Both the position numbers and the translations under genes were made by a program. From Actinomycetota bacterium (GTDB taxonomy: Bacteria > Actinomycetota > JAHEXW01): a stretch of DNA of 64,000 bases. Of the stretch, positions 5,260-58,419 are shown in pieces; position 1 is the stretch's first letter, and each line of letters begins with the position of its first letter. Where the stretch lies: NCBI GenBank assembly GCA_025355855.1, contig JANXYU010000035.1, forward strand, positions 20,604 through 84,603, read 5' to 3'. The notes under the pieces were generated by a model that was not told where the DNA came from, made no database searches, and saw nothing but the letters and a program-made list of their open reading frames with translations.

Positions 5260-5892
5260 ATGCGTCCGGAAATCATCCCCGAGCCAACGTTAGTCAGACT
5301 CACCATCTACGGACGGTGTTTGAACGACCTGATGGAAGAAGGGGCCACCCTCGTCGCCTCGGATGAATTAGCGCATCGAGCCGGGGTAAACGCGGCCCAA
5401 GTGCGTAAAGACCTTTCCTATCTAGGCAGTTTCGGCCGACGGGGTGTCGGTTATGACGTCAGGCATCTTTCTGATCGGATTGCCACCGCCATGGGATTAA
5501 CCAAAGAGCGAGGTTTCATAATCGTCGGGGCTGGCCGCTTAGGCAGCGCGCTCATGGGTTACGACGGTTTTAACAAGAAGGGTTTTCGGGCTGCCGCAGC
5601 CTTTGACGCGGATATAAACAAGGTCGGGCAAGCGATCGGGTCGATAACGATTCGCGACATAAATGAACTGCCGTCGTTCGTCCACTCAAACGGCACTGAG
5701 ATCGGGATTATTACGGTGCCCGCCTCCCATGCCCAAGCGGTGGCCGACAACTTGGTGAAATCCGGTATCAAAGCCATCCTTAATTTCGCACCGATCGTTA
5801 TCAAGGTGCCAGCCGGGATTCGTTACCGGCAGGTTGAGTTGTCGAGCGAGATGGAAGTCCTAGCCCACTACCTCAACTCTCAGGGGGATTAA
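5260..5892 (+). CDS. rex: Redox-sensing transcriptional repressor Rex (NADH/NAD+ sensor)
   Basis: RBS AAGGAGG; N-terminal wHTH (PEPTLVRLTIYGRCLNDL..ASDELAHRAGVNAAQVRKDLSYLGSFGRRGVGYDV) plus a Rossmann GAGRLG motif, which is the Rex family hallmark. Confidence 0.9.
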   Translation: MRPEIIPEPTLVRLTIYGRCLNDLMEEGATLVASDELAHRAGVNAAQVRKDLSYLGSFGRRGVGYDVRHLSDRIATAMGLTKERGFIIVGAGRLGSALMGYDGFNKKGFRAAAAFDADINKVGQAIGSITIRDINELPSFVHSNGTEIGIITVPASHAQAVADNLVKSGIKAILNFAPIVIKVPAGIRYRQVELSSEMEVLAHYLNSQGD

Positions 5893-12827: not shown

Positions 12828-12828
12828 G

Positions 12829-35563: not shown

Positions 35564-37978
35564 ATGATGAACCGATTGCACCGGTTCCAGCCGGTAGGTA
35601 GGGGCGGATTTACCCCGTGGTTGATTGCGGCGGTCGGCGTTTTGGCAACGCTGTTTCTGACCTATTTCTCCGCTTCCGGGCTGACCTACAAAAATATTGA
35701 AACGGATTATCAGAAGACTTATTCCCATTACGCTCCGGCGGGCAAGCACAGCGATACCGAAACCTATGCCTGGGATCCGTCCCTTGGCTCGACCGACGTC
35801 GAACGGCTGACGGCCAATCTCAGCAAGCGGCACGCTAATTGCGACGACTGCCATGATCCGCATTCGGCCACGCGAGCCTCGTCACCTCTCGGTAGCTATT
35901 TCGGCGCCGGGACGCAAGCCAATGTCAGCGGCGTCCGCCCGGTTTACGGATTGACGGCAGGCACGGTACCGCAGTTCGCTTTCGAAGCCTCAGTCGTCAA
36001 AGAGTACGAGCTCTGTTTCAAGTGCCATTCCAGCTATGCTTTCAACTACGATTTGTATCAGGCGACCTATGGACACCCAATGGCGTTCAACTGGACAAAG
36101 CGGCGTTACTGGCAGCCCGGCGATCCGGGGACTGACGATATTATCAACGAGACGGATACCGCCAAAGAATTCAACCCGAACAACGTTTCTTACCACCCCG
36201 TGCTAAAGCAAGGACCAATCCCGGGAAACAAGACTCTAACCTGGGCCAACGGAATATATTTCGACGAGACGTTCGTGCCGGGGATGGGCGCGGGCAGCTA
36301 CATAAAATGCAGCGACTGCCATACCAGCGACACCAATAACGCCAAAGGCCCGCACGGGTCCAACCAGCGTTATATCCTAGCGGCGCGCGCGCCGACGCAG
36401 GAACCGACGATTACCCGGTCCATCACACTTGGCGCCATCCGGCCGACCAACGGGGGCGGCCGATCTGCGGCGGCCATGGTCTGGTACATCCGGACAACTG
36501 AACTCCTCTGTTATAAATGCCATAGCGTCGACTATTATGGTCCAGGCAAAGGGCATCCGTCGCACGGTAAGCATTCGACCAACTGTACCTGGCACCGGCC
36601 TATCGCCTTAGATGAAGTAGGCTGCGCGACGTGCAAGGCGACGCCGATTCACGGCTCAGTGGCGACACCTTATTTGATGATTTTTAATAACGGCAGCTGG
36701 TGCTACAACTGCCACCCGTTTAGGGCTGGCGCGCGCGGTTCCGACTATATGGGCGGCGAACCGTCCTGCCCCCGCTTCTATTCCGTTGCCTCCGACGGGA
36801 CGACAGTCGAAGAGACCCGCGTCCACTTCCAGTCCTCTCGCCTGAAGGCGGGCGCTGAGTACGATGTGCCCCTGCCGACGCCGGACATGCCTAACCTGAA
36901 GGGCCTGGGCAACATCCCGGCCTACAGATACTACAATCGCGACGACGACTACGTCCTGTTCAAAAAAGGCACACCGGTCATCGATGCGAAAGCCAACACA
37001 TACTCGGTCACCTTCAACCAACCCTCCTCGGGCGACAGGCCCGACGGCCAACCGGTGGGCGAGGTCGGCTACGAGGACCAGATATCATTGTGGACGGTAG
37101 ACCACGCCAAAGACAGTCAGGTCTATGTCTCCGTCGAGGGGAACGTGACCGCAGTCAAACCTACCGACGTAGTCACGCCGAAGACGGCCACCGACAACCT
37201 GGGCAACGACGTAACCGACGTCATCGCTCGCCGGACGCTCTCGACCGAGGACCGCTCCGGCTGGTTTACCGGCACCGTCGGCTACGGCAACACCATCGAC
37301 GAGATCTACAAATCAGGCAACTCCTTCGTCATGGACTTCGGGGACTTGAGTTCCGCCAAGACGGTCAAGCTCCTCTGGGGCGTCAACGAGGAGAAAGGCG
37401 GCAAACTGCCGATATACGTCCAGACGAAGAACGCCAAAGGACAATGGGTCACCCGAGGGAGTGCCCGACACTCCGAGGACCGTTTCGGCTACCTCGACTT
37501 GACCGGACTCTTCCCCAAGGGGACCCGTCACTTCCAGGTGAAGATCATCCCAACCTTGAACTCCATTGACTACATGGCGATCGCCACGAAAGACTCGCCC
37601 GTCAAGGTAAATAAGCTACCTATCAAGCAAGCGACCTATACCAAGTATCAGGGAGAGACGACCGACGTCACGGCCTTACTAAACGCGCGCGACAACCAAT
37701 ACGTCACATATGATTATCGCGATACGAGCAATCTCTTATTCACCATACCCGCCAAGGACAAGACCTTGACGCGACGCGACTTCCTGTTCGCGCCCGTCGG
37801 CTACTACGAGACTGGCGGCGACATCAACCCGAAAGCAACGCTGGACCCAATGACGGCGGAGAAGGCGCAAGACTTCGCCACGGTCACTCCGGCCGGCGGT
37901 TACGCCAATCATTACAACATCGGCTTGATCGACCCGGGCGCTTGGAACGAGACTTGGGATAGCAGGCTGGTGAAGTGA
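35564..37978 (+). CDS. Membrane-anchored pentaheme c-type cytochrome (N-terminal ~400 aa) fused to a C-terminal ~400-aa beta-rich domain of unknown function (ORF-track start 35513; ATG 35564 with RBS GAGGGAG preferred)
   Basis: TM helix; CDDCHDPH, CFKCH, CSDCHTSDTNNAKGPHGS, CYKCH, CYNCH; no heme motifs in the C-terminal half. Confidence 0.8.
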   Translation: MMNRLHRFQPVGRGGFTPWLIAAVGVLATLFLTYFSASGLTYKNIETDYQKTYSHYAPAGKHSDTETYAWDPSLGSTDVERLTANLSKRHANCDDCHDPHSATRASSPLGSYFGAGTQANVSGVRPVYGLTAGTVPQFAFEASVVKEYELCFKCHSSYAFNYDLYQATYGHPMAFNWTKRRYWQPGDPGTDDIINETDTAKEFNPNNVSYHPVLKQGPIPGNKTLTWANGIYFDETFVPGMGAGSYIKCSDCHTSDTNNAKGPHGSNQRYILAARAPTQEPTITRSITLGAIRPTNGGGRSAAAMVWYIRTTELLCYKCHSVDYYGPGKGHPSHGKHSTNCTWHRPIALDEVGCATCKATPIHGSVATPYLMIFNNGSWCYNCHPFRAGARGSDYMGGEPSCPRFYSVASDGTTVEETRVHFQSSRLKAGAEYDVPLPTPDMPNLKGLGNIPAYRYYNRDDDYVLFKKGTPVIDAKANTYSVTFNQPSSGDRPDGQPVGEVGYEDQISLWTVDHAKDSQVYVSVEGNVTAVKPTDVVTPKTATDNLGNDVTDVIARRTLSTEDRSGWFTGTVGYGNTIDEIYKSGNSFVMDFGDLSSAKTVKLLWGVNEEKGGKLPIYVQTKNAKGQWVTRGSARHSEDRFGYLDLTGLFPKGTRHFQVKIIPTLNSIDYMAIATKDSPVKVNKLPIKQATYTKYQGETTDVTALLNARDNQYVTYDYRDTSNLLFTIPAKDKTLTRRDFLFAPVGYYETGGDINPKATLDPMTAEKAQDFATVTPAGGYANHYNIGLIDPGAWNETWDSRLVK

Positions 37979-39087
37979 GCCGGCGCGCCATTATGGCCAC
38001 CATTGGCGTTGTCATAGCGGCGATCGTGCTAATTGGCGGAGGATACCTGCTCTACCGGTATCTGAGGCCGAGTTACAAGTTGCAAGCGGTATATGTAACG
38101 ACAGAACCAAAGTTGGACGGCCAAGGGAATGACGCGGTCTGGAAAAACGCGCCGGAGCTGACGATTCCGATAGATCAGGCCGAGCCGATTACGATTAAGG
38201 CGGTCTATACGAAGACCAAGATTTTCTTTCTGGCGCGTTATGCCGATTCGAGCCAAGACGCGGTCTTCTCGCCCTGGGTGTACGACGGCAAGACTTGGGC
38301 ACACGGACGCCGCGGGGACGCTCTGGAGCTGTTTTTTGACATCGGAAACTCGGTGGTTGGTTTCCCGGACAAGGGTTTCAAGATAATGACCTACGGGTTT
38401 AAGCCGGGTTTAGAGATTTATAATTTTGGCCAGATAAACAAAGGGAAAAGCAAGAAGGTCTGGCCGGGCAGCCGGGGACGCGCCGATGTATGGCTGATGG
38501 GCGCGGGTAACGGGGCCGCTTTCGGAATCGGAGACGATATGATCTACCAGGCTAATCAGGACTATCTATTCAGTCCGGAGACAAGTCAGGCGCAAGTTTG
38601 GCCGCAATGGGATCAATTCACGAATCTTCGGGCCATCAACTTGAATAGTGACACGTGGCGCGAGGCCATCGCGGCCAGTGAAGGCGGCGAAGCGAAAAGC
38701 GTTAAGCAGGAGCAGCCGTATCTAATGTACACAGAGGGATTGAATCTCAACAATACGCCATATCCCTTCGACGATCAGCTGACGCCGATGACCGCCAGCG
38801 CGACCGCTCGAGCGGGCGACAAACTGCCTTTTGTCTACTACGCTCGCGATACCAAGGGAAATTGGGGTGGCAGCCGGGGAGACGTTAAGGGCACCATGAA
38901 ATGGTTGGCCGGAAACTGGACCGTCGAGATGGGCCGAAGTCTGAACACCAAGAACCCGGACGACATCGTATTTCGGACCAGAGAAGTAAATAACGTTCAT
39001 TTCGGGGCTTTGGTGCGGCGCGACGGGCAGACGACCCGGTTTAGCCCGCCGGCCACACTTGAGCTAGTGCCCCAGGGAGGCGAATAG
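37975..39087 (+). CDS. DOMON/CBM9/EB_dh-like secreted protein, family member 1 (TM-anchored, no heme-c motif)
   Basis: Family motifs: KLDGQGNDAVWKNAPELTI, GDDMIY, NNTPYPFD, WGGSRGDV, LNTKNPDDIVF; GTG start overlapping the upstream stop. Confidence 0.65.
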   Translation: MSRRAIMATIGVVIAAIVLIGGGYLLYRYLRPSYKLQAVYVTTEPKLDGQGNDAVWKNAPELTIPIDQAEPITIKAVYTKTKIFFLARYADSSQDAVFSPWVYDGKTWAHGRRGDALELFFDIGNSVVGFPDKGFKIMTYGFKPGLEIYNFGQINKGKSKKVWPGSRGRADVWLMGAGNGAAFGIGDDMIYQANQDYLFSPETSQAQVWPQWDQFTNLRAINLNSDTWREAIAASEGGEAKSVKQEQPYLMYTEGLNLNNTPYPFDDQLTPMTASATARAGDKLPFVYYARDTKGNWGGSRGDVKGTMKWLAGNWTVEMGRSLNTKNPDDIVFRTREVNNVHFGALVRRDGQTTRFSPPATLELVPQGGE

Positions 39088-39088
39088 C

Positions 39089-40138
39089 ATGATAAAAAGA
39101 CATGGCTTAGTTAGTCTGGCGTTATTTGTCCTCCTCGCGGCGGCTTCCGGCTGCGCGACCGCTAGCAAAGCGGCGACATTCAAGGCTCCGGCCAACACCT
39201 TAAGCGCAGTCAAGGTAACCGGCGCGTTTACGATTGACGGCAATTCCAGTGAACCGGCCTGGAGTAAAGCCACAGCGGTAATGATTCCGCTCAAGGCTGA
39301 AGCAGGCGTCGAGGCCAAAAAGGTCACACTGCGCGCCGTCTACGACGACAAAAACATATATGTGGCGGCGGCTTACGCCGACGCGACACCGCTTAAATTA
39401 GGCGAGGCGTGGACATTTGACGGCGCGGCCTGGAAGAAGGGCAGCTTTGACGACACGCTGGCTTTCGTTTGGAACATTAATGACTCCATTCCCGGCTTCA
39501 ATCAGCGGGGCATGGGTGTCATGACGAAACCGCTGACGAAGGGTATGGACGTTTTCGACTTCCAGCTGGCTGCCTCCGACAATAAGACAGCGGCCGCCAA
39601 AGCTGATTTTTGGGGCTGGTGCGGGATGCCGGAATTCTATGGCCGGGGCGACGACATGATATTTGCGCTTGATGAGCAAACCAAACTGGGCGGGCTAACA
39701 AAGACGCTAACGGTGCGGCATGACGCGCATACGAACAGCACGCCTTGGATTCGCAACGAAGCCACGGTCAACGGCTCGGCCGTTCCTAAGTATAAATATA
39801 AAGCGGGTTTCGACATCAACAACACGCCCCGGCCTTACGAGGATCAAGTGGAAGCTATCACCGACTACTCGACGTTCAAAGCCGGAGACCGAGCTCCATA
39901 TGTAGTAGGTATTAGGGGCGCCACCTGGGGCGGCAGTAAGGACGACATTAGAACAAAAGGCAGGCGTTCCGCGGGTGATTGGCAGGTTGAGTACGCGCGA
40001 GCGCTGGACACAGGACACGCCGACGATATCAAACTCGTACCCGGCGAGACGGTGACGTTCATCGTTGTTTTGCGCGATGACGCTAAGGGCTACGCGATCA
40101 GCGCTCCCGTTACGCTAAGACTCGGAGAAGGTGGGTAG
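39089..40138 (+). CDS. DOMON/CBM9/EB_dh-like lipoprotein, family member 2
   Basis: RBS GGGAGG; lipobox AASGC; motifs IDGNSSEPAWSKATAVMIPL, WNINDSIPGFNQRG, FWGWCGMPEFYGRGDDMIF, NNTPRPYED, WGGSKDD, LDTGHADDI. Confidence 0.7.
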   Translation: MIKRHGLVSLALFVLLAAASGCATASKAATFKAPANTLSAVKVTGAFTIDGNSSEPAWSKATAVMIPLKAEAGVEAKKVTLRAVYDDKNIYVAAAYADATPLKLGEAWTFDGAAWKKGSFDDTLAFVWNINDSIPGFNQRGMGVMTKPLTKGMDVFDFQLAASDNKTAAAKADFWGWCGMPEFYGRGDDMIFALDEQTKLGGLTKTLTVRHDAHTNSTPWIRNEATVNGSAVPKYKYKAGFDINNTPRPYEDQVEAITDYSTFKAGDRAPYVVGIRGATWGGSKDDIRTKGRRSAGDWQVEYARALDTGHADDIKLVPGETVTFIVVLRDDAKGYAISAPVTLRLGEGG

Positions 40139-40141
40139 GTC

Positions 40142-41206
40142 ATGAACAGACAATACAGGGCTTTTGCCAAAATTTCCGTAACGATTGTCCCCTTGATTCT
40201 TCTCCTGGGGGCCGTTACCGGCTGCGCTACATCAGGCAAGGCGGCGACCGTTAACAAATCTGCCGCACCTGTGCTACCGGCAGTCAAAACAATCGGCCGG
40301 ATTATCATTGACGGGAAGACGAACGAGGCAGCTTGGAACGATGCGCAAGCGCTGACTATTCCACTAAAAGCCGAGGCGGGCGTGGAGGCCAAAAAAGTTA
40401 CTCTGCGCGCTGTTTATGACAAAGAGAACATATATTTGGCGGCGGAATATGCCGACGCAACGCCTGTCAAGATGAATGAGGCCTGGGTTTATGACGGTAC
40501 GGCCTGGAAGAAAGGAAGCTACGACGACACCCTGGCGTTCGTCTGGAACATGGATAACTCAATCCCCGGTTTCAACGAACGCGGCCTAGGCGTGATGACC
40601 ACTCCGCTAGTCAACGGCAAGGATGTTTTTGATTTCCAGTTGGCCGCCGCCACCGACGCGACGGCCGATTCCAAGGCTGATTTCTGGGGTTGGTGAAGCA
40701 TCCCCGAACTCTACGGTCGTGGAGACGATATGATCTTTAAGCTCAATGAGGAAACCAAACTGGGAGGTCTGACCAAGACCCTCACGGTTCAGCACGACGC
40801 GCACATCAATGACCGGCCCTGGATCGCCAATACGACCAAGAGCAACAACGGGGACGGCCAGCCCATTTACCGCTTCAAGGACGGGTTGTCGTTTGCTAAT
40901 ACGCCTAACCCTTACCGGGGCGATGTTGTAGAGATAACGCCCGCCGATACGTTCAAAGCAGGCGACCGAGCCCCCTTTGCCATCGGTGTCCCGGGCGCCG
41001 TCTGGGGCGGCAGCAAGGACGACATCTTAACCAAAGGCATCAGCGCTAATGGTACGTGGACCGTCGAGTTCGCGCGGCGCTTAAATACCGGCAATCCCGA
41101 CGACATCAAACTTGTCCCCGGACAGGCAGCCACATTTGTCGTTGTCGTCCGCGATGACGCCAAGGGCTACGCTCTCAGCGCTCCGGTTACGCTTAATCTT
41201 GAATAA
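40142..41206 (+). pseudogene. DOMON-like lipoprotein family member 3, one reading frame interrupted by an in-frame TGA (40694-40696) where the adjacent paralog has Cys (TGC); pseudogene, sequencing error or selenocysteine
   Basis: ORFs 40142-40696 and 40730-41206 are in the same frame and colinear with 39089-40138 (FWGW*SIPELYGRGDDMIF versus FWGWCGMPEFYGRGDDMIF). Confidence 0.6.
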
Positions 41207-41238
41207 GGAAGGTAACGCGAACGGCGCGTAATTCACAT

Positions 41239-42294
41239 ATGCGGCAAATAATCACCACCAGCCGGCCGATTGCGGTCGCGCTCACGTCTATGATCCTCTT
41301 GCTCGGCCTAAGCGGCTGCAAAACCGGCGCGTCACCTGACTCAACGGCGGCAACAGCGCCTACGGTCAAAGCTGTCTTTACCAAGATCGCCCCGAGCGTT
41401 GACGGCAAGAGTGACGCTATCTGGAAAACCGCCCCGGAGACAAAGGTTAAGCTGCTGGAGACCAACGAAACAATCAACCTTAGGTTTCTGTACACGAATA
41501 CATCCATCTACGTCAAGGCGACATATCCGGACAGTACGCACGACTATATCGATCGGCCTTGGCGATTTGACGGCCAGAAATGGAAGCAAATAGGCCAGCA
41601 AGACTCCCTTTGTTTTATCTGGAATGTCAATGATTCGATTCGCGATTTCAACGCACGCGGCTTTGCTATCCTGACCCGCGGTTTGGAAGAGAACCGGCAT
41701 CCCTGGGATATCGAGATTGAAGGAGGCAAGCAGGCCGCCGTGCCTCCCTGGTTCAAAGCGCAAAAAGGGGACTTCTGGTCGACGGGGCTGCAATTGCCGT
41801 ACGGCAAGGCGGAAGACTGGGTCCTGAAGACGGGCAAAGCTCGCTGGTCGAACGGTGACTGGCATATCAAGCTGGTGAATCAGCACGACGCTTTTACCAA
41901 CCCCGCTCCATGGGTGCTGAACAAAGCAGCCGATTGGACACAGCCTATCTGGATACTCAAGCCGGGCCTAACGCTGCAATCCGACCCTTACCCGGTAAGC
42001 GCCGACATGGTCGAGATCGGCGACCACGTGCCGGTGGCCGGTGAGATGCAGCCGTTCATCGTCTATCGAACTCGACAAGCCCGTTGGGGCGGCAGCAAGG
42101 ACGACATTGACGGAGCGGAGGCCTGGCGCTCCGGCGTCTGGACGGTCGAGATGGGGCGGTTGTTGAATACGGGGCATAGCGACGATATTTATTTTCAACC
42201 TAAAAGCGGCCGGACGTACACTTTCGGCCTTCTGGTTCGGCGGACGGGCAGCCGCTACCAGCCGACGGATCCGGTGAAGCTTGTTTTTAACTAA
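41239..42294 (+). CDS. DOMON/CBM9/EB_dh-like lipoprotein, family member 4
   Basis: Lipobox LSGC; motifs SVDGKSDAIWKTAPE, WNVNDSIRDFNARG, WGGSKDDI, LNTGHSDDIYF. Confidence 0.7.
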   Translation: MRQIITTSRPIAVALTSMILLLGLSGCKTGASPDSTAATAPTVKAVFTKIAPSVDGKSDAIWKTAPETKVKLLETNETINLRFLYTNTSIYVKATYPDSTHDYIDRPWRFDGQKWKQIGQQDSLCFIWNVNDSIRDFNARGFAILTRGLEENRHPWDIEIEGGKQAAVPPWFKAQKGDFWSTGLQLPYGKAEDWVLKTGKARWSNGDWHIKLVNQHDAFTNPAPWVLNKAADWTQPIWILKPGLTLQSDPYPVSADMVEIGDHVPVAGEMQPFIVYRTRQARWGGSKDDIDGAEAWRSGVWTVEMGRLLNTGHSDDIYFQPKSGRTYTFGLLVRRTGSRYQPTDPVKLVFN

Positions 42295-44722
42295 AGCGCA
42301 ATCAGACGGGAATCAGCAAAATATTAACCCAGGCCCGACCTCGGCCAGGCCTAACGCGGATAGAAGAGTAGGCTACGTAGGGCTATTCTTTCTTTCTCTA
42401 GCTCTATTGATGATTGAGATCGTTTACTCGCGTACCGCACGCGTGTCTTTTGGCTATGAGTATCAGCTGTTGGTGATTTCTCTGGCCATCTCCGGCCTAG
42501 GTCTCGGCGGAATCCCCGTTTACTATCTTTTCAAACGTGTCAATCAGAGCTTTAACCGCTGGTTGAGCCCGCTGGCTTTGGTTTTTACCGCGTCTCTGCC
42601 TCTGCCATTTCTTACTGTAAATAGTCTAGGCGTTGAATACGCGGCCAAAAACGTGGGTAACGAGCTTACCTATTTCGGTGTTTCGACGGCCACAATGACG
42701 CAATTCTCATTGGCGGTTTTCGCTGTGTATTTTGTGGCCGGCGTGCTGATTGCAGCTTTCCTTAGCCACTATAGTGAGCGCGTGTCGTCGGTCTACGCCG
42801 TGAACTTGGTCGGTTCGGCTGTCGGCGCGTTGGCGGTGATACCGTTGATGAACCTGTTCGGTATGGAAACGACGATTGTAATAATCTATGCCGTGGCTGC
42901 CGCCGCCGCTTTATTGTTTGTCTCGCGGGCCGGTTTGAAGCCGGTGCTCATGGCGGCTTTAATCATAGTTGTTCTGCTTAGCATAGGTTTGCTGGCTCGC
43001 ACTGCGCCGGCCTTGCGCGCCGGCGGCAGGGACAGCAAGGCTGTTATATCGGCTTCTAATTCTTTCTCGCAGATCGATGTGTTTCGGGTCGACCCGACCA
43101 GCCTGGCGAAGGGTCTAAGCGCCTCGTTTGGTGAGGCTATTAAACCGAGCGTGCACGCCTACAGCTTGGTGTACGACCGGAAACTTAAAACTAACGCCAT
43201 CGTCTACACAAATCTGGCCGATGTTAAGTATCTAACCTATGATCTTTTCTATTTCCCGTACTATTTGAAGCCTCGTTCCGACGTTTTGATCATCGGTGCG
43301 GGCGGCGGTGTTGATGTGGCGCGGGCCAGCCTGGCGGACAGCCGAACGATTGACGCCGTGGAGGTCAATCCGCTGATGATTGATATCGCTCGCAACCGGC
43401 TGAGGACCAAGGCGTTCGACGCCCCCAACGTCCGCTTGCATGTGGGCGAGGCCAGAAATTTTGTCACCGGCTCGAAAAGACCATATGATCTCATCTTCTT
43501 ATCCAACACCGGCGGATTCGGCGGCCGCAGTGTCAACTCGAATTACTACCCTGACAATTACCTTCATACCAAGGAAGCCTACGTTACTTATCTGAAACAT
43601 CTTAGACAGAACGGTATCCTAGCTGTCAGTAACAAAGATATGGTTGTGCGCGAGTTTGTCGGAGTCGGTATAGCCGCATTGGGTCAGCAGGGGATCGCGG
43701 CCGCGCATCACGTCGCGCTGCTGGCGGGTCACGGCTATTCTGTCGTCCTTTTCAAGCCGGCAGGTTTTTCGCGCCAAGAGGAACGTCTGATCGCCAAAAA
43801 GGCGGCGCGTCTAAACTTCAGCGCTGAATTTCCCGCGTCTTTGCCCGCTGACGCTATCATGGGAGCAAGCCTAACTGACGATAAGCCTTTCTTGTCTGAT
43901 AGGACTTCGCTTCTCCAGATACTATCTTCTCCCCCCACTAAGTCAGAAGCGATGGCGCCTGCGACACTCCCGGGAGCGGTAGCTTTGCCGACGACGAACG
44001 CGGGAGGGACGGGTGAGGCGGATGGATATCTGGCAATTCGTTTTCTGGCGTGGCTGGGCGGCCTCGGTTTAGCCGTTGTGCTTTTATTGCTGGCGGCGCC
44101 GCCTCTGTCTTCCGGGATTCGGGGAACGCGGCAGTCGCTTAACGTTTTGCTCTCACTTGGGTACTTTGTCGCCTTGGGTCTCGGCTTTATCGTCTTCCAG
44201 ATGGTCATGTTGCAGCGAGCTTTCCTGTTTATCGGTAATCCATCGTACTCCATGGTTCTTGTCCTCGCTTCATTCTTGTTATTTGGAGGTTTGGGAAGCC
44301 TAGCCACGGCCAAGATTAAGCCCGAACGATTCCGGTTCGCGATTGGCATCGCCGGCGGAGCATCCGCAGCCTGCCTGCTGGTTTACTCATATTCGCTGAA
44401 TCGGCTGTTCGTCGATCTGATCTATCTCAGCCCGGCCGTTCGCGCTCCTTTGCTTGTCTTGCTGCTCGCCGTCCCTTGTTGGCTGGCCGGTCTCATGTTT
44501 CCAATCGGCCTAAAGCTAACAAACTCCCTAACCGAGCAGCTAATACCGTTGATGTGGAGCATTAACGGGGTCGCAATCGTTTTGGGCGGCGCCACCGCGG
44601 CTTTGCTCGCATTCTTCTACGGATTTAGGATTACCCTGGGCGCAGGCGCAGGCTTCTATCTCGCCGCGGTTTTCCTGTTTATCGGCGTCAAAACTAAGAG
44701 CTTGCGGTCATTTACAGAATGA
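42281..44722 (+). CDS. Polytopic membrane protein with an embedded spermidine-synthase-like (aminopropyl/methyltransferase-fold) domain; start uncertain (track start is a TTG inside the previous gene)
   Basis: ~7 N-terminal TM helices; Rossmann motif VLIIGAGGGVDVARASLADSRTIDAVEVNP and YDLIFLSN resembling spermidine synthase; more TM helices at the C-terminus. Confidence 0.65.
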   Translation: MFLTKAQSDGNQQNINPGPTSARPNADRRVGYVGLFFLSLALLMIEIVYSRTARVSFGYEYQLLVISLAISGLGLGGIPVYYLFKRVNQSFNRWLSPLALVFTASLPLPFLTVNSLGVEYAAKNVGNELTYFGVSTATMTQFSLAVFAVYFVAGVLIAAFLSHYSERVSSVYAVNLVGSAVGALAVIPLMNLFGMETTIVIIYAVAAAAALLFVSRAGLKPVLMAALIIVVLLSIGLLARTAPALRAGGRDSKAVISASNSFSQIDVFRVDPTSLAKGLSASFGEAIKPSVHAYSLVYDRKLKTNAIVYTNLADVKYLTYDLFYFPYYLKPRSDVLIIGAGGGVDVARASLADSRTIDAVEVNPLMIDIARNRLRTKAFDAPNVRLHVGEARNFVTGSKRPYDLIFLSNTGGFGGRSVNSNYYPDNYLHTKEAYVTYLKHLRQNGILAVSNKDMVVREFVGVGIAALGQQGIAAAHHVALLAGHGYSVVLFKPAGFSRQEERLIAKKAARLNFSAEFPASLPADAIMGASLTDDKPFLSDRTSLLQILSSPPTKSEAMAPATLPGAVALPTTNAGGTGEADGYLAIRFLAWLGGLGLAVVLLLLAAPPLSSGIRGTRQSLNVLLSLGYFVALGLGFIVFQMVMLQRAFLFIGNPSYSMVLVLASFLLFGGLGSLATAKIKPERFRFAIGIAGGASAACLLVYSYSLNRLFVDLIYLSPAVRAPLLVLLLAVPCWLAGLMFPIGLKLTNSLTEQLIPLMWSINGVAIVLGGATAALLAFFYGFRITLGAGAGFYLAAVFLFIGVKTKSLRSFTE

Positions 44723-44895: not shown

Positions 44896-45963
44896 ATGGG
44901 GCAGAAGATGGCAGGAGAGAGGCTTTTGACGCAAACTGAATGCATCAAATCCGTCGGCGACGGCCTGGGACGGACGATTTTCGCTTATACGGCATTTGTC
45001 TTGACCATGACATTAGTCATGGTCATGCTGTTGTCTTCTCCTGTTTTCGCGGCCGATGACAGCCCTCACGGCCACTTTACCTCCAATACCGATAAATGCA
45101 AATCCTGTCACCGGGTGCACAGCGGCAGCACGGCCAGCTTGCTTCCTGAACAATCCATAACGCAGACTTGCGTTTCTTGCCATTCCAACGGTTCGGGCGC
45201 CGACACCGGTGTTATGCAAGGCGCCTATTTCGACGCCGGGCATCCGGGGCACTCCTGGGGAGTCAACGGCGGCACTTTGGTCGGAGGCGGTTTTGCTCTG
45301 GTAGGCAATAGCGCCGCTGTGACCGGCAGTCATCAATTGGACGCGGCCGGGAAGCCGTACGGCACGACAACTGGTGTTTCTTATGTACTGACATGTGTTA
45401 GTTGCCATACCCCGCACGAGGGCCCTAACTATCGTTTGCTCCGGCGTAATGTCGCCGATTCCCCGACTGACATCCGCGTTACCAGCAACGAACTCGACAA
45501 AAACTACTGTGTGACCGATTACGGCGCGGCGCCGGGTATTCAGGAATACACTCGGAATTATAAAAGCGGGATTGCGGCGTGGTGCACGGCCTGCCACGCC
45601 AAGTACATGACGCGCGGCGGCGTTTTTGGGGCCGATGTTTATAACGCCGGCGACATGTACGGTTCAGTCACGCGATACCGCCATGCCATCGACGTGCCGA
45701 TAACCGGACGCGCTGATGCCGCCAACGGTATCGCCTACAATCTGACGACAAATCTGCCGCTGCAGGATCTGACCGGCGACGGACGGACAGCCGACGACAC
45801 GATAACCTGTTTGACGTGCCATCAAGCGCACGGCGGCGCAGCGATAATGCACGGAGCGGCGATTCTGACATCCGGCCAGCGCGGCGCCTTACCGAGTAGC
45901 GGCGATAGTACGTTACTAAGGCAGGACGATCGGAATGTCTGCCGCGACTGCCATAATCTGTGA
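44896..45963 (+). CDS. Secreted hexaheme OmcS-like cytochrome paralog 3
   Basis: Signal peptide; 6 CXXCH (CKSCHRVHSG, CVSCHSNGSGADTG, CVSCHTPHEGPNYRLLRR, WCTACHAKYMTRGG, RYRH, CLTCHQAHGG, CRDCH). Confidence 0.8.
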   Translation: MGQKMAGERLLTQTECIKSVGDGLGRTIFAYTAFVLTMTLVMVMLLSSPVFAADDSPHGHFTSNTDKCKSCHRVHSGSTASLLPEQSITQTCVSCHSNGSGADTGVMQGAYFDAGHPGHSWGVNGGTLVGGGFALVGNSAAVTGSHQLDAAGKPYGTTTGVSYVLTCVSCHTPHEGPNYRLLRRNVADSPTDIRVTSNELDKNYCVTDYGAAPGIQEYTRNYKSGIAAWCTACHAKYMTRGGVFGADVYNAGDMYGSVTRYRHAIDVPITGRADAANGIAYNLTTNLPLQDLTGDGRTADDTITCLTCHQAHGGAAIMHGAAILTSGQRGALPSSGDSTLLRQDDRNVCRDCHNL

Positions 45964-45986
45964 TTGAGAAGTGAGAGGAGAGGGAA

Positions 45987-47099
45987 ATGAACGTGCTTAG
46001 AAGATTATCACGATTTACACATTTTTCTGGAAAGGTGGTGAAACCAATGAAAACCAAATTGCTAGGAACGACTGTCATTACGTTGGTCGTGTTCCTGTGC
46101 TTGAGCGGCTCAGCTTGGGCGGCATATCCGCACGGCTTGTTCGGCGCGACGCCGGACGCTTGCGCGGCTTGCCATCGCATGCACACGGCGACCAGCAACA
46201 ACTTGATCGCCGACCCGAACGGTTCATCGATGTGCGATTCTTGCCATCGGGGCGGTACGGGAGCCGATACGGACGTCGGGACAGGCACCTACGTAACCAA
46301 CGGAGAGCCCGGCCATGCCTGGGGCGCGAATGGCGGTACACTGCTCGGCGGTGGTTTTGTGACTGTTAACGGGGCAACGGCGACATCGATGCACGTCATG
46401 AATACAGCTTTGACGCCGCCCGGGTCGACGACTGGCGCGACGATTAAGTTGCGCTGTATTGACTGTCACAGCCCGCACCCGGACAAGAGCTATCCGAACC
46501 AGTACCGGTTGCTGAGGCTGAATCCGAACAACGTAGCTGCGGCTCGACCGGTCGCGTGGAACGGTCCTTGGACCGACGCCACTCAGACGGCCTATCAGTC
46601 AGACGGCTATCGCGGTTATACGGAAACGGACTTTGTCTCCGGAACAGCCGGAACACAGTATTATACCCACAACTATAAAACGGGTATCGAGAATTGGTGC
46701 ATCGCGTGCCACAGCAAATACATGACGCGCGGCGGCCAATTCGGTACTGACGTGTACAACACGGGAGACAAGTACGATAGCGACCCCGCGGCTGTTAACG
46801 GACGTTTCCGCCACGGCGTCGGCGTGCCTCTGAAGAGCGGGAATCCGGATCAAGCGAACCAGATCACCTATGACCTGACAACCGATCTGCCCTTGGAGGA
46901 CGTAAACGGCAGCATGACGCGTGACTATACGACCGATCTGTTGACATGTACGTCGTGTCACCGGTCGCATGGCACGAACGCGACGATGTCCGGCGAAGCG
47001 GTACTTGAAAATCGCGGCACCGTTTTACCGGCCGGAGTGGACAGCATGCTCTTGCGTCAGAACGACCGTGTCATGTGCGTTAACTGTCACAACATGTAA
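45987..47099 (+). CDS. Secreted hexaheme OmcS-like cytochrome paralog 4 (strong RBS GAGGAGAGGG; alternative ATG at 46047)
   Basis: 6 CXXCH (CAACHRMHTA, CDSCH, CIDCHSPHPDKSYPNQYRLLR, WCIACHSKYMTRGG, RFRH, CTSCHRSHGTN, CVNCH). Confidence 0.8.
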   Translation: MNVLRRLSRFTHFSGKVVKPMKTKLLGTTVITLVVFLCLSGSAWAAYPHGLFGATPDACAACHRMHTATSNNLIADPNGSSMCDSCHRGGTGADTDVGTGTYVTNGEPGHAWGANGGTLLGGGFVTVNGATATSMHVMNTALTPPGSTTGATIKLRCIDCHSPHPDKSYPNQYRLLRLNPNNVAAARPVAWNGPWTDATQTAYQSDGYRGYTETDFVSGTAGTQYYTHNYKTGIENWCIACHSKYMTRGGQFGTDVYNTGDKYDSDPAAVNGRFRHGVGVPLKSGNPDQANQITYDLTTDLPLEDVNGSMTRDYTTDLLTCTSCHRSHGTNATMSGEAVLENRGTVLPAGVDSMLLRQNDRVMCVNCHNM

Positions 47100-47174
47100 A
47101 AAGTACCTAATTGAAGGAGAAGAACCGCTTTCTTGACGGATAGCCTAGAGATCCAAGAGCAAAGCGAGAGAATC

Positions 47175-48227
47175 ATGAAGAACAGAGTGTGGGTATCAGG
47201 GATGATCTTAATAGCGATGTACCTGGCCTTGGGCGGCAACGCCCTGGCCGGGTATCCGCACGCGTCATTTAGCGGTCACCCTGATGCCTGCGCTTCTTGT
47301 CACCGCGTTCACACGGCCACGGCCGGTAACTTGATCAAGGATCCAGCCGGTACGTCCTTATGCTACTCCTGTCATTGGGGCGGATTGGGTGCGGATACGG
47401 ATGTAAAGAACGGTCAGTATGTCAGCACAGGAGAGACGGATCACAGCTGGGGCGATCCTAATATGCCTCTGCTGGGCGGCGGTTTCGCTCAAGTCAAAAG
47501 CACATCGACCACAACCAGCCATCACATCATGGATACAGCCATAACCCCGCCGGGCGTCAATGATTATCAAGACCCGGGTGCGGTAATCACCTTGAAATGT
47601 ATGTCTTGTCACAGCGCGCATCCCGACAAGGGCTACCCAAATCAATACCGCTTGTTGCGCGTTTGGCCGAATGGTGTTGCCAAAAACGACCCGCGCGAGG
47701 TTAAGTGGAACGGGCCGTGGGATGACGCGACGCAAACGACCAAGAATAACCCGGCTCGTGAATATCGGGCTTACTCCGATAAGGACTGGAATCCCGACCT
47801 GCCGGGCACGCAAATCTACACAATGAACTACGGCGAAGGCATGAGTCAGTGGTGCGTAAGCTGCCACACGAAGTATTTGACCCCCAAGGATAGCTCGCCT
47901 TACGACGCCGGCGACGCCTACGGCGCTTTGGTACGCTACCGGCATCACGCGGACACCAAGATTACCAATCTGACCGATACGAACAGCGGTCTGGCCTATA
48001 ACCTCCACACCGATCTGCCTTTGGCGCACGTCGATGACCCCGGGATCCCGGCGGCCGACCGGAGCAAAATGAACTGCGTTACTTGTCACCGCTCGCACGG
48101 AACCGACGCGGTCATGGTGGGCGAGGCGATTCTGAGCCCGACCACGCGGGTCAGCCTGCCGACCGACAGCACCTTGCTGAGGCGGGACAACCGCGGGGTC
48201 TGCGGCAACTGCCACACCAACATCTAG
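47175..48227 (+). CDS. Secreted hexaheme OmcS-like cytochrome paralog 5 (track start TTG 47133; ATG 47175 gives a clean signal peptide)
   Basis: 6 CXXCH; motifs MSQWCVSCHTKY, NCVTCHRSHGTDA and C-terminal CGNCH match OmcS (MSEWCANCH; NCLSCHRAHASG) as recalled. Confidence 0.8.
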   Translation: MKNRVWVSGMILIAMYLALGGNALAGYPHASFSGHPDACASCHRVHTATAGNLIKDPAGTSLCYSCHWGGLGADTDVKNGQYVSTGETDHSWGDPNMPLLGGGFAQVKSTSTTTSHHIMDTAITPPGVNDYQDPGAVITLKCMSCHSAHPDKGYPNQYRLLRVWPNGVAKNDPREVKWNGPWDDATQTTKNNPAREYRAYSDKDWNPDLPGTQIYTMNYGEGMSQWCVSCHTKYLTPKDSSPYDAGDAYGALVRYRHHADTKITNLTDTNSGLAYNLHTDLPLAHVDDPGIPAADRSKMNCVTCHRSHGTDAVMVGEAILSPTTRVSLPTDSTLLRRDNRGVCGNCHTNI

Positions 48228-48509
48228 TCCGTGCCTCAACGCCTTTTGGCCGCTGACCTTAGCCTGGGTTATAATTAACCTAGACAAGCGTGCGAGAAAG
48301 GTTATCCGATAATAGCTATAAACAACACCAGTAAGATTGTAGTCATTGCGACCTTATTACTATTCCTTAGCGGCTGCGGCTATGCCAACCGACCGGCCAA
48401 TAACCCTTCGTCGCCGACAGCCCGTGTCCTTGAAGCCGAGTTCGGGCCTGCTCCGGTCGTCGATGGTCGGGCCGGTGACCCGGTCTGGTCTTCCGCCCGG
48501 TCTCTCACC

Positions 48510-49385
48510 GTGACCACCGCAGGCGGACCGGCGGTAACGCTTAAATCAGCAATTTCGGGAGAATACATATACATGTTGCTCACATGGGCCGATTCGACGA
48601 ACGATAACGTGGATGAAGTGTGGCGATATGACGGCGCGACCTGGACGCAGGGCCCGATTGACGACGCCGTTGCCGTGTTCTGGAATATCGACGAGTCAAT
48701 CAACGGTTTCGACAGGAGCGGCTGCCGGGTCCTATGTCACGCGGTTAACGGCCAACCAGCGATGAGCCTGGTGGGGCCGGTAACGCCCACGGGGAAATGG
48801 AGCGGCGTCAAACAGCGAGGCGATATCTGGGATATGTCGTTGGGCATCAGCAATGTCAGAGGGGTAGGGAACGACTATTTCTTCGGCATCGACGAGGCCT
48901 ACGTTAAGAATCCGACGACCATCACGCCGGTGATCCGGCGCCGGCACGACGCCTATACCGCCCGGGCTCCCTTCGAGCTCAACAAGCGCGTCGATCCGGC
49001 CACCGGTAAAAACGTGCCGCGCTATCGTTTGCGCGCCGGCTTGACGACGACCACGACCCCTTACCCCCAGATCGACCAGGTTGAATTAATCACAGGTGAC
49101 ATGTCTTTCGCCGCCGGGGATACTATACCGTATGTCGTTTTCTATCCGCTTGACACACCGTGGGGCGGCAGTCGCGATGACTTGGTAGCTAAGGGCGTCT
49201 GGCTGGACGGACAGTGGACGGTTGAGTTCAAGCGTAAACTAGACACGGGTCACCCAGCGGACGATATAAAGTTCGTTAAAAAGGCGGGACAGACAAGCTA
49301 TTATGTATTTGACGTCGCGCTGTTTAACAGGACGATCAGCCAACATACCTATTCGGGACCAATTAGTCTGGAGATCAAACAATGA
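48510..49385 (+). CDS. DOMON-like family member 5 carrying a CX3CH heme-c-type motif (GCRVLCH); true start probably upstream (~48309-48336) at a non-ATG codon, giving a lipoprotein signal ...LLLFLSGC
   Basis: Family motifs VVDGRAGDPVWSSA, WNIDESINGFDRSGCRVLCHAVNG, WGGSRDDL, LDTGHPADDIKF; the in-frame upstream extension encodes KIVVIATLLLFLSGCGYAN. Confidence 0.65.
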   Translation: MTTAGGPAVTLKSAISGEYIYMLLTWADSTNDNVDEVWRYDGATWTQGPIDDAVAVFWNIDESINGFDRSGCRVLCHAVNGQPAMSLVGPVTPTGKWSGVKQRGDIWDMSLGISNVRGVGNDYFFGIDEAYVKNPTTITPVIRRRHDAYTARAPFELNKRVDPATGKNVPRYRLRAGLTTTTTPYPQIDQVELITGDMSFAAGDTIPYVVFYPLDTPWGGSRDDLVAKGVWLDGQWTVEFKRKLDTGHPADDIKFVKKAGQTSYYVFDVALFNRTISQHTYSGPISLEIKQ

Positions 49386-49401: not shown

Positions 49402-50556
49402 GTGAGACCCAAATACCTAAGTAGCATCGCGCTCAGTTTAATGTTAATCGCAGCGCTCGCCTCGACGGGTTGCGCGACGAAAACAGGCGCCGTTAAGGCG
49501 CCTACCAAGCTAACGGTAAAAGCGGTCAAGGTTGATACATCGCCCAAGCTGGACGGTCAGGGCAGTGATGCCGTATGGCGCCAAGCCAAGCCGGCCACTA
49601 TCCACACGAAGAATGGCGCGGATCTAGTCCTAAGAACCGTTTACACGGCGGACAGCATCTACTTTCTGGCGACATGGAAAGACTGGACTCCGCAAAAAGG
49701 CTTGCTGTATTGGGAGTATGACGGGCAAAAGTGGCATTCGAATCTAAACGAAGACGACAAAATCTCATTTATCTGGAATATCGACCGTTCCATCGACGGT
49801 TTCGACAAGACCGGCTGCGCGGCCATCTGCCACAAGGGACCGGAAGGTCGCGACGAGATGGCTGTCTTTGGACCGCCCAAACAAAGCGGGAAAGTCTGGC
49901 CCGGATATAAAGAAAAAGCAGACGCCTGGAAATGGGCGCCCGGTGTGATGAGTGAGAAGCACGTTGTTGACGATGGGCTGTTTAGTGCGGGCCGCGAAGC
50001 CTTAGCGCGCCCGGAGATGCAAACAAGATTTAAGTTGTCCCTTTTATTTGACGGGGGCGACCAGGGAACAAAACAATGGTGGACACGCAACCCGAACGCA
50101 GCCGGCGGGATGCACGGTGATGAGGAAGAAGAGAACGAGACGCCGGGCAGTTTTAAACCGACGTATATGCCCAAGCCGGGCTATGATCTAAGCAAGCACC
50201 CTTTCCCGAACGCTCGCGATATGGTGCCGATCACGGACTACTCGATCTTCAAAGCGGGCGACAAGGTGCCGTTGGTAATGTACTTCGATCTGACAACCGC
50301 GAAGAATAAGATAGACTTTCCCGCTGGGCGGCCCTCCGGCAGCCGGGTCGATCTATCCGGGCAAGCGGTTTATAAGGACGGGCATTATACTCTCGAGTTC
50401 GGGCGTAAGCTTGATACCAAGCACAACGACGACGTCCAGTTCCGGCCGCAGAGCGGTCGGGCGGTGGCTGAGAATGTCTTTGGGGTGGCGCTCTTTAACG
50501 ACACCCGCTACGGTCATACCACCAGCGATCCCGTGACCTTAACCCTAGAACCGTAG
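49402..50556 (+). CDS. DOMON-like lipoprotein family member 6 with a CX3CH motif (GCAAICH); the ORF-track start 49303 overlaps the previous gene and is unlikely
   Basis: GTG 49402 yields MRPKYLSSIALSLMLIAALASTGC (lipobox); motifs KLDGQGSDAVWRQAKPATI, WNIDRSIDGFDKTGCAAICHKGPEG, LDTKHNDDVQF. Confidence 0.65.
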   Translation: MRPKYLSSIALSLMLIAALASTGCATKTGAVKAPTKLTVKAVKVDTSPKLDGQGSDAVWRQAKPATIHTKNGADLVLRTVYTADSIYFLATWKDWTPQKGLLYWEYDGQKWHSNLNEDDKISFIWNIDRSIDGFDKTGCAAICHKGPEGRDEMAVFGPPKQSGKVWPGYKEKADAWKWAPGVMSEKHVVDDGLFSAGREALARPEMQTRFKLSLLFDGGDQGTKQWWTRNPNAAGGMHGDEEEENETPGSFKPTYMPKPGYDLSKHPFPNARDMVPITDYSIFKAGDKVPLVMYFDLTTAKNKIDFPAGRPSGSRVDLSGQAVYKDGHYTLEFGRKLDTKHNDDVQFRPQSGRAVAENVFGVALFNDTRYGHTTSDPVTLTLEP

Positions 50557-56839: not shown

Positions 56840-57814
56840 GTGACCATCAAGCGTTTATTTGTCGAAACCAATTGGGACGATGCGCTGCTGCCGGAGGTGG
56901 CCGGTACTTCCTGCCGCGGCATGTTCGGCCGTCCGGCCGGCGGTGTTCTGACGGAGGCGGCAGCCGGGCACATCCGGACCGTTAAGCGCGGCGGTCTTGC
57001 GTTCAGCTATGCCTTGGATGAGCTTTGTCTCGACAATCGTGAGCTCACGCGGGAGGGCAATCGGCGGCTGCGGCAACTGCTGGATAAGCTGGCGGCTCTG
57101 GAGGTGGACGAGGTGATCGTGTCTTCGTTCTTCTTGCTAGAGCTGATCAAGGACAAGTATCCGTCCCTGGCGGTCGTCATGTCCGATACTGTCGCCTTCG
57201 ACAGCGTCCAGCGGGTGCGTGAGTTTATGCAGCTGGGGGCACGCTACGTCTGGTTGCGCGACATGAATCGTGATTTTAAACAGCTCAAGACGCTCGCCGG
57301 CACGTCGCCCGGAGTCTGCCGTCTGGTCGCGAATCGCGCCTGCGGCTTCGATTGCGCGTTGGCCATTACCCACTCCAACGAGCGTTCCCATACCAGGGAC
57401 GATCACACGGGGACGGACCTTTTGGTAGCGGATTTATGCGTTCAAAGAATGCTGCGCGAACCGGCCGCTCTTATGAAAGCGCGTTGGATCAGGCCCGAGG
57501 ATCTGGAATTCTACGCGACCCGCGGTTTCTCTGATTTTGTGATTTATGCGCCGACCCCGGAGACGGTCCGGATAGTTGATGCCGTGCGAGCCTACGACTC
57601 GGCTGAATCTCCTGCCAACCTGTTGGACATCCTCAGCCTGCCAGACGACGTAAGATTTGACCAGGTACGACAGGCCGTGCAGCTGGATACCGCGCAGCTG
57701 GAAGATTTTGTCCAGGGATTCGGCGACAAGGATTGCCGACGGGCGGACTGCGACGTCTGCGGCTACTGCTCCGCTGCCGCGGCTGCCGCGGTGCGGCCGC
57801 GCTCGGCCAAATGA
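56840..57814 (+). CDS. Putative U32-family (UbiU/UbiV-like) protein, paralog of 55662-56837
   Basis: Colinear with the upstream gene (FSYALDELCLDNRE, CGFDCALAITHSNE, DCRRADCDVCGYC). Confidence 0.4.
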   Translation: MTIKRLFVETNWDDALLPEVAGTSCRGMFGRPAGGVLTEAAAGHIRTVKRGGLAFSYALDELCLDNRELTREGNRRLRQLLDKLAALEVDEVIVSSFFLLELIKDKYPSLAVVMSDTVAFDSVQRVREFMQLGARYVWLRDMNRDFKQLKTLAGTSPGVCRLVANRACGFDCALAITHSNERSHTRDDHTGTDLLVADLCVQRMLREPAALMKARWIRPEDLEFYATRGFSDFVIYAPTPETVRIVDAVRAYDSAESPANLLDILSLPDDVRFDQVRQAVQLDTAQLEDFVQGFGDKDCRRADCDVCGYCSAAAAAAVRPRSAK

Positions 57815-58419
57815 ACCAGCGCGATCTCGGTTCCTGCAAACAGCGGACGCATGGACTCGGCGGTCTCCAAACCGGCGCGGCGTACCAATCCGTCTAGGCC
57901 GACCTCCAGAAAGACAAAGAAGCTGGGCTCTTCTACGCGCCCAATCGTTTGTTTGAGCGCCCAGGTGCCTATTCTTGTGCGGGGCACGGCGAAGTCGGCC
58001 GCTACGATCGCCCGGCGCGTGACGCGCGCCATCTCTTTTAAGAAAGCCTCCGCGTCCGACAACGGCACCTCGTGCAACGCTAACGAAATAAAGCTGACAT
58101 CAAAACTGTTGTCAGGAAAGGGTAGGTCGGTCGCGTCCGCCTGGCGCAGATCCGCTCCGGTGCCGCGCAGACGGCGGGCTGCTCGTTCCAGCATCGCCGG
58201 AGACAAGTCGACCAACGTTACCGCCGCGTCATGCCGGGTCAAGCGTACCGCCAGGCTGCCCGTGCCACCTGCTACGTCCAACACGCGATCGCCTGGTTGC
58301 AGCCGGGCGATAGTCGCCATGCGGTTCCACGTTCGCCACATAAATGGCGTAACCAGACCGTAAACCTTGGCCAAATGGTCGAATCTGTCAATAATCTCGG
58401 TCTTGTCTCCAGCCGGCAT
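57763..58419 (-). CDS. Class I SAM-dependent methyltransferase (UbiE/MenG-like)
   Basis: Motif I VLDVAGGTGSLA; convergent with the upstream + genes; fills the only + strand coding gap of this region. Confidence 0.7.
   Translation of the reverse strand: MPAGDKTEIIDRFDHLAKVYGLVTPFMWRTWNRMATIARLQPGDRVLDVAGGTGSLAVRLTRHDAAVTLVDLSPAMLERAARRLRGTGADLRQADATDLPFPDNSFDVSFISLALHEVPLSDAEAFLKEMARVTRRAIVAADFAVPRTRIGTWALKQTIGRVEEPSFFVFLEVGLDGLVRRAGLETAESMRPLFAGTEIALVHLAERGRTAAAAAAEQ

Follow-up and report, generated by a model that had tools for sequence, protein, structure and literature searches.

Exported EB_dh beta-sandwich proteins with CX3CH motifs and a candidate selenocysteine site in a cytochrome-rich locus of Actinomycetota

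A stretch of 64,000 nucleotides from an uncultivated Actinomycetota bacterium (assembly GCA_025355855.1, contig JANXYU010000035.1, positions 20,604 to 84,603 of the forward strand; hereafter the window, to whose first letter all positions refer) encodes, among several multihaem cytochromes, seven paralogous exported proteins of the EB_dh type (PF09459). Three of them carry a CX3CH motif, and the gene of another is interrupted by an in-frame TGA codon. The locus raises the question of what role such proteins play next to multihaem cytochromes, and of what the two unusual features stand for. We regard it as moderately likely that three types of EB_dh protein act here as membrane-tethered extracytoplasmic redox proteins within an electron-transfer island: type A, with the CX3CH motif (genes starting at about 48309 and at 49402 and 58544), type B, with a cysteine or a predicted selenocysteine at one conserved position (39089 and 40142), and type C, with neither feature (37975 and 41239).

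Seven paralogs of one beta-sandwich family

The window was searched in all six frames with a family profile built from the seven sequences. It recovered exactly seven loci and none besides (37975-39087, 39089-40138, 40142-41206, 41239-42294, 48279-49385, 49402-50556 and 58544-59608), all on the same strand and with products alignable over their full length; 40142-41206 was matched as two abutting pieces, corresponding to profile positions 1-180 and 184-357. This search bears out a previous sequence-only reading of the same DNA, which had described a seven-member family with four genes in tandem. The tandem genes (37975, 39089, 40142 and 41239) are separated by gaps of 1, 3 and 32 nt. Pairwise identity to the first member, 37975, is 26-32%, and the seven-protein alignment contains 37 invariant columns. 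The motif strings originally quoted for the family turned out to be an approximate consensus and not exact matches (GDDMI occurs in three of the seven members, WGGS[KR]DD in five), whereas the invariant residues underneath them are real and comprise DG...W, a D-x-W strand, P-x-P, G-S-x-x-D and T-x-x-x-D-D.

Six members exceed the PF09459 gathering cut-off of 33.3 bits, with scores of 48-73 bits; the 41239 product falls below it with 25 bits, yet it aligns throughout and is an unambiguous paralog. Matches to CBM9_1 (PF06452) remain below the gathering cut-off of 23.4 bits (best 22.5, others 14-18) and cover only the N-terminal 50-80 residues. AlphaFold models of two members, 49402 (31 homologs; predicted local distance difference test score, pLDDT, 87.3) and 39089 (pLDDT 85.7), were compared with the PDB through Foldseek. 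Both models matched the Kuenenia nitrite oxidoreductase subunit NxrC (7b04_C, E 6.5e-11 and 1.3e-10) and the ethylbenzene dehydrogenase subunit EbdC (2ivf_C, E 5e-8 and 2e-8), which both bind haem b, and, less well, CBM9 modules (1i82). The family profiles also match 7b04_C by sequence, only at the two ends of NxrC, and a single-member sequence search against the PDB returned no match. Because model and profile matches converge on NxrC, EbdC and CBM9, the EB_dh/DOMON/CBM9-like beta-sandwich proposed from the sequence alone is the correct fold assignment. The membership of all seven proteins in the EB_dh (PF09459) beta-sandwich family is established.

The proposed secreted or lipoprotein nature of the family also held: as read from the sequences, six of the seven proteins start with a signal peptide ending in a lipobox, and the seventh, 37975, has an uncleaved hydrophobic anchor.

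The in-frame TGA of the 40142 gene

Type B comprises the second and the third tandem gene. Paralog 2 (39089-40138, + strand; 349 amino acids; lipobox AASGC; 63 bits for PF09459) contains Cys178 in the sequence WGW-C-GMPEFYGRGDDM. Paralog 3 (40142-41206, + strand; 354 codons; lipobox AVTGC) reads WGW-TGA-SIPELYGRGDDM at the same place and is a predicted selenoprotein, with selenocysteine at position 185. The TGA (40694-40696, + strand), predicted to encode selenocysteine, stands where paralog 2 and its homologs have their conserved Cys; it had been overlooked when 40142 was first assigned to the family, an assignment that stands. Past this codon the gene resumes in the same frame, and public gene calls cut it into fragments of 184 and 158 amino acids. 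The aligned Cys is the sole Cys of the mature 39089 protein and is kept in 12 out of 12 full-length homologs of the clade; the Cys form at the TGA-aligned codon was also found in six loci for which DNA is available.

The same TGA is present in the closest relative, contig L001 of the metagenome-assembled genome (MAG) Actinomycetes bacterium nzgw113, which shares 80% nucleotide identity over the 40142 gene. With the further copies retrieved by metagenome and database searches, the TGA form is represented by six distinct sequences on seven contigs (the window, L001, L003, L008, L009 and L010/L011). In addition, nine database 'proteins' of 177-207 amino acids, with 48-79% identity, all terminate in FWGW. 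The stop is TGA in every copy, and the next 11 codons specify x-[LI]-P-E-[FL]-Y-G-R-G-D-D, with mostly synonymous differences. Specifically, the window and L001 share 17 identical consecutive codons (51 nt) starting from the Trp that precedes the TGA, while elsewhere about half of the codons differ. The ratio of non-synonymous to synonymous substitution rates (dN/dS) between the two amounts to 0.09 for the part before the TGA and to 0.057 for the part after it, with a dS of 0.9-1.4; purifying selection extends across the codon, and the low downstream value indicates that the second half of the gene is translated and constrained. In the AlphaFold model of 39089, Cys178 is the last residue of strand 172-178, well inside a single domain, and at least 12 further strands come after it, so that a 40142 product truncated at the TGA would not fold. 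The window uses the standard genetic code, since TGA ends 14 of its 34 genes, and a global reassignment of TGA was ruled out on the same count.

A hairpin resembling a selenocysteine insertion sequence (SECIS), CUCUAC-GGUC-GUGGAG, maps at 40709-40724 (+ strand); it consists of 6 bp closed by a GGUC loop and starts 12 nt past the UGA. The form YUCUAC-GGUC-GUGGAG is found in all six distinct TGA copies, the sole variation being C/U at the closing pair, and in only one or two of the six Cys copies (exact in L002, as a variant in L005). The four synonymous sites of the Y-G-R-G peptide are fixed as TAC GGT CGT GGA in six out of six TGA copies and variable in the Cys copies.

Selenocysteine and Cys forms are interleaved in a neighbour-joining tree, which points to repeated interconversion of the two. 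One Cys copy deserves mention: on the metagenome contig Ga0265296_1024860 (L002, 979-1030) a TGC codon is accompanied by the SECIS-like hairpin in its exact form, and a total of about 45 nt is identical to the selenocysteine copy L003, the genes being 67% identical overall. L002 is probably a recent selenocysteine-to-Cys conversion.

All together, a UGA aligned with a conserved Cys, orthologous UGA codons, selection past the UGA and a SECIS-like stem-loop make it very probable that 40142 encodes selenocysteine at its TGA. The 39089 and 40142 genes are best read as a new pair of Cys protein and predicted selenoprotein, unrecognised before; our literature search found no description of an EB_dh selenoprotein. 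This conserved site is the most unusual trait of the locus and gives it more interest than its first description suggested.

The CX3CH members

The three type A genes lie downstream of the tandem cluster. Paralog 6 (49402-50556, + strand; 384 amino acids; lipobox ASTGC; 73 bits for PF09459; AlphaFold pLDDT 87) carries GCAAICH at 49813-49833, and paralog 7 (58544-59608, + strand; 354 amino acids; lipobox AATGC; 72 bits), with quinone-biosynthesis-like genes on one side and a B12 radical SAM gene on the other, carries GCGAVCH at 58982-59002. Paralog 5 (48309-49385, + strand; lipobox LLFLSGC; GCRVLCH at 48720-48740) has an uncertain start codon. The start formerly placed at 48510 is inside the gene, as homology and the lipobox reach upstream to about 48309. 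No ATG, GTG or TTG precedes the signal peptide in the segment 48279-48520; the candidates are the ATA codons at 48309 and 48312, following the ribosome-binding-site-like sequence GAGAAAGG (48294-48301). Since the L001 ortholog shows the same arrangement, these sequences suggest a non-canonical start codon for paralog 5.

The three CX3CH strings are real and map within a few bases of the positions first assigned to them. In each case G-C-x3-C-H sits on a short helix and loop after a conserved F-x3-G. Conservation of C139, C143 and H144 is at least 90% among the 31 homologs of 49402, down to 27% identity; Syntrophobacteraceae and MAGs of Actinomycetota are among the sources of these homologs. 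A profile built on the CX3CH clade was then used to search 1.84 billion cluster representatives (50% identity) and found 2,992 relatives at E<=1e-3, 400 of them at E<=1e-30. The motif GCxxxCH is present in 132 of the 150 best representatives among the 2,992, a sample that leans towards CX3CH because of the query profile; the G-C-x3-C-H context was identical wherever checked, and in none of the 150 does CXXCH take its place. Within the same 150, each repeat carries one CX3CH in proteins built of two to four EB_dh repeats, and a few CX3CH proteins are fused to CXXCH modules with 6-8 motifs. Most of the closest relatives of the CX3CH clade carry the motif themselves, and the family is large and widespread.

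These counts bear on three proposals of the sequence-only reading. A functional, probably haem-binding CX3CH motif is supported, both by its near-invariance down to 27% identity and by its presence in most of the best representatives. The idea that the fold had acquired covalent haem locally does not agree with that same distribution, even in a sample enriched for CX3CH. Nor do the three members replace a GFNQRG loop locally, as the window members fall into separate orthologous groups that are themselves conserved.

Candidates for the distal haem ligand were sought in 97 single-domain CX3CH proteins: His372 of 49402, in the last strands, is conserved in 81% and Met153, nine residues past the motif, in 61%. 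All three window members keep the equivalents of both. Type A proteins combine a conserved CXnCH motif with export signals (lipoboxes), and CX3CH is recognised as a haem-c motif that occurs in nature (PMC11492766). They are likely to be monohaem c-type cytochromes: covalent haem is the most likely assignment for a motif whose second Cys is directly followed by an invariant His, in proteins that bear export signals and are encoded among many cytochromes. Our literature search found no description of a CX3CH cytochrome of the EB_dh type; the mode of haem attachment predicted here is a widespread though uncharacterised one in this fold.

Genomic context, proposed role and comparison with known systems

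We read the window, from its gene content, as an island of genes for extracellular electron transfer in a monoderm Actinomycetota MAG. Among its products are two NapC/NirT-type decahaem proteins, 12- and 14/15-haem cytochromes and an NHL-repeat protein. The two decahaem genes, whose products are candidate quinol dehydrogenases, are found together with genes for the apolipoprotein N-acyltransferase Lnt and a Rex-type redox-sensing repressor at 215-1963, 2580-4091 and 5260-5892, an assortment that fits a lipoprotein-rich, redox-regulated electron-transfer island.

The order of genes around the EB_dh cluster is conserved in four contigs (L001, L008, L009 and L010). It runs from a pentahaem gene through the anchor-type, Cys-type, selenocysteine-type and type C EB_dh genes to one for a spermine-synthase-like membrane protein, followed by a pair of EB_dh genes with CX3CH and then by two B12 radical SAM genes with a further EB_dh gene between them. 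In the window, the series opens with an 821-amino-acid pentahaem protein, translationally coupled to paralog 1 (37975-39087, + strand; 370 amino acids; 48 bits for PF09459), whose GTG start overlaps the stop of the pentahaem gene. Paralog 1 is the member with an N-terminal membrane anchor and contains no Cys and no CX3CH. The other type C gene, paralog 4 (41239-42294, + strand; 351 amino acids; lipobox LSGC; 25 bits for PF09459, family profile E 2e-145), has neither CX3CH nor the WGW-Cys, carries Leu in place of the Met of the VMT position, and has the orthologs P0044 and P0045. The gene that follows (42281-44722, + strand) encodes an 800-amino-acid polytopic membrane protein with a central spermine/spermidine-synthase-like methyltransferase domain; it always comes after the tandem EB_dh genes, also at 2889-5303 of L001 and at 5215-7563 of L009.

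The segment 50558-62889 contains genes for three B12-binding radical SAM proteins, a UbiA prenyltransferase, two U32-family proteins (UbiU/UbiV-like) and a polyprenyl synthetase, with a UbiE-like methyltransferase gene on the minus strand (57763-58419). By its annotation it looks like a set for oxygen-independent isoprenoid-quinone biosynthesis or modification, interleaved with the EB_dh gene 58544; the adjacency of B12 radical SAM and EB_dh genes recurs in L009.

Other cytochrome genes surround the cluster. Five paralogous hexahaem proteins of 355-376 amino acids, putative nanowire cytochromes in the sequence-only reading, are encoded at 11724-13950 and 44896-48227. For the one at 45987, phmmer against the PDB gave no cytochrome match and Pfam only generic multihaem models, and the neighbouring hexahaem sequences showed no similarity to any solved structure, filament cytochromes included. 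A single open reading frame (ORF) of 7,177 amino acids occupies 13983-35516 (+ strand); its product has an N-terminal anchor, Ig-like, Laminin_G_3, DUF2341 and glycine-rich domains, and ten CXXCH motifs plus one CX3CH confined to the last ~1,350 residues, and looks like a giant surface protein with a multihaem module at its tip. We considered it as an eighth family member and ruled it out, as its lone CX3CH lies outside an EB_dh context and the family profile does not match it.

The mechanism that we infer comprises haem attachment, selenocysteine insertion, axial ligation and a relay role. Type A proteins would be exported by the Sec pathway and lipidated before haem is attached to both Cys of the motif, with the motif His as proximal ligand and either His372 of a C-terminal strand or Met153 as distal one. 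In type B, which has no CX3CH and a single conserved Cys directly after the invariant D-x-W-x-W strand, the UGA of 40142 would be read as selenocysteine with the help of the SelB-type hairpin 12 nt downstream. The pair of selenocysteine and Cys forms would mark this residue as redox-active or as a ligand; type B proteins also conserve a Met (VMT) and a Lys and a Tyr (DDxKGY), and the redox-active residue may possibly sit beside a haem b of the Met/Lys type. Type C proteins may be structural or anchoring partners. The three types together could act in electron transfer, or catalyse a redox reaction, on the external side of the membrane. The conserved synteny suggests that they may be placed as a relay between the NapC/NirT-type multihaem quinol dehydrogenases and the large multihaem cytochromes of the wall or surface. 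A bolder version, which we hold to be doubtful, would make type B a new class of surface-exposed selenoenzyme, with selenocysteine or Cys at the EB_dh haem pocket performing redox chemistry on an extracellular substrate with electrons supplied by the multihaem cytochromes in a cell envelope of the Gram-positive type; the residue would then be an axial selenolate or thiolate ligand, or a catalytic residue fed by haem.

Several results weigh against the reading that we favour. The 64-kb window contains none of selA, selB, selC and selD and no cytochrome c maturation gene of the ResB/CcsA type, and covalent haem is absent from every solved relative of the fold that was matched, all of which bind haem b or sugars. 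As to the hairpin, which at 6 bp is short, RNAalifold detected no compensatory covariation, the single-sequence fold of the UGA region was no better than that of shuffled sequences (z = -0.08), and an Rfam scan of 40500-40900 with E up to 10 gave no match. As the folding energy is no better than that of shuffles, the case for a SECIS rests on comparative conservation, and this conservation could in part be due to the strongly conserved peptide EFYGRGDD. No tRNA genes were found in the window. The same lack of selenocysteine machinery in the window, the public gene calls with two coding sequences and an ATG 33 nt downstream of the TGA would be expected if the TGA were a real stop, and 40142 a pseudogene or a truly split gene giving two polypeptides. 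We consider this quite improbable: across six distinct sequences, with 48-79% N-terminal identity, no stop other than TGA occurs, and its place is the Cys-aligned codon each time; what would be an untranslated spacer keeps the most conserved peptide of the family in frame, with mostly synonymous changes; the low dN/dS persists downstream; and the C-terminal piece has no signal peptide, though both halves make one beta-sandwich.

The haem b or sugar ligands of the solved relatives, none of which binds haem c, together with the uncommon spacing of CX3CH and the missing maturation genes, are also compatible with CX3CH forming a disulfide or a metal site, any haem being non-covalent haem b as in EbdC and NxrC. 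This appears unlikely, as the His right after the second Cys is no less invariant than the two Cys, the arrangement that defines a haem c site, and as CX3CH proteins are exported, occur in loci rich in c-type cytochromes, are sometimes fused to CXXCH multihaem modules and use a spacing already accepted as natural for haem c (PMC11492766). A different view takes the proteins, especially the four tandem members without CX3CH, as CBM9-like scaffolds for carbohydrate or cell-wall binding with no redox cofactor. The tandem members do show weak CBM9_1 matches over their first ~60 residues (E 1e-4 to 0.03), the fold matches include CBM9 structures, and no haem ligand is obviously conserved throughout types B and C. 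However, CBM9 scores stay under the gathering cut-off where EB_dh scores exceed theirs, NxrC and EbdC match better than CBM9 in structure, the occurrence of both selenocysteine and Cys at one conserved site speaks for redox chemistry rather than sugar binding, and the Met, Lys and Tyr of type B recall the Met/Lys ligation of haem b in EbdC (PMC8840923); we therefore judge this view unlikely. Finally, the name of the Pfam family, taken from a gamma subunit, and the best structural matches could suggest gamma subunits of a molybdoenzyme of the type II DMSO reductase family (EbdABC, NxrABC, SerABC). Such a role is extremely improbable and was rejected, because no gene for a molybdopterin alpha or Fe-S beta subunit was present among the ORFs scanned or inspected in the window and in the five syntenic contigs (L001 and L008-L011); in addition, seven copies with lipoprotein anchors are ill-suited to a soluble 1:1:1 complex.

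If the haem of type A is covalent, the EB_dh/DOMON beta-sandwich would be a widespread, so far uncharacterised scaffold of c-type cytochromes, and surveys that count haems by CXXCH would miss the hundreds of 50%-identity clusters that carry CX3CH. If the UGA is decoded as predicted, the TGA-bearing member would represent a candidate selenoprotein family now annotated as two hypothetical proteins, presumably extracytoplasmic and lipid-anchored in an electron-transfer island of uncultivated groundwater Actinomycetota. It would provide a concrete and testable link between selenium use and extracellular respiration, and the selenocysteine/Cys position would pinpoint a functional residue in an otherwise featureless family.

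Among known systems, EbdC (2ivf_C) and NxrC (7b04_C) share with the window proteins the PF09459 family, the beta-sandwich fold and the character of exported electron-transfer domains with a single cofactor, and type B appears to keep Met and Lys at plausible ligand positions. The known gamma subunits bind non-covalent haem b, which EbdC ligates through Met and Lys (PMC8840923). They belong to operons of molybdoenzymes and are not lipoproteins, whereas the window proteins have lipid or transmembrane anchors with no molybdoenzyme seen, carry CX3CH or the selenocysteine/Cys residue, and are about 100-150 residues longer. The CBM9 (1i82) and DOMON superfamily has the same overall fold and leaves a weak N-terminal sequence signal in the window proteins; the scores are below the CBM9_1 cut-off, and the Cys, His and predicted selenocysteine features, with the cytochrome context, argue for redox function and not for sugar binding. 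Archaeal monohaem cytochromes c modelled on the haem subunit of ethylbenzene dehydrogenase, such as Igni_0759, have been predicted (PMC4429474). They too would be beta-sandwiches with covalent haem c, bound by an N-terminal CXXCH, unlike the CX3CH of the window, and both cases come from modelling only.

The 40142 gene resembles bacterial selenoproteins with Cys homologs in having a UGA at a conserved Cys position, a stem-loop just downstream, and selenocysteine and Cys forms interleaved in the tree. In the SECIS of E. coli fdhF the GGUC loop lies at nt 22-25, counted from the U of UGA, and the GGUC loop of 40142 occupies the same position. Selenocysteine decoding, with remnant SECIS elements in genes converted to Cys, is documented in bacteria, Actinobacteria included (PMC1794560), and the remnant hairpin in the Cys form L002 resembles that description. 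The EB_dh fold is not among the 25 selenoprotein families of that survey, public annotation names the family 'ethylbenzene dehydrogenase-related' or 'hypothetical', and the 40142 product is, by prediction, an exported lipoprotein. In conclusion, the fold is already known and the candidate selenoprotein family is new.

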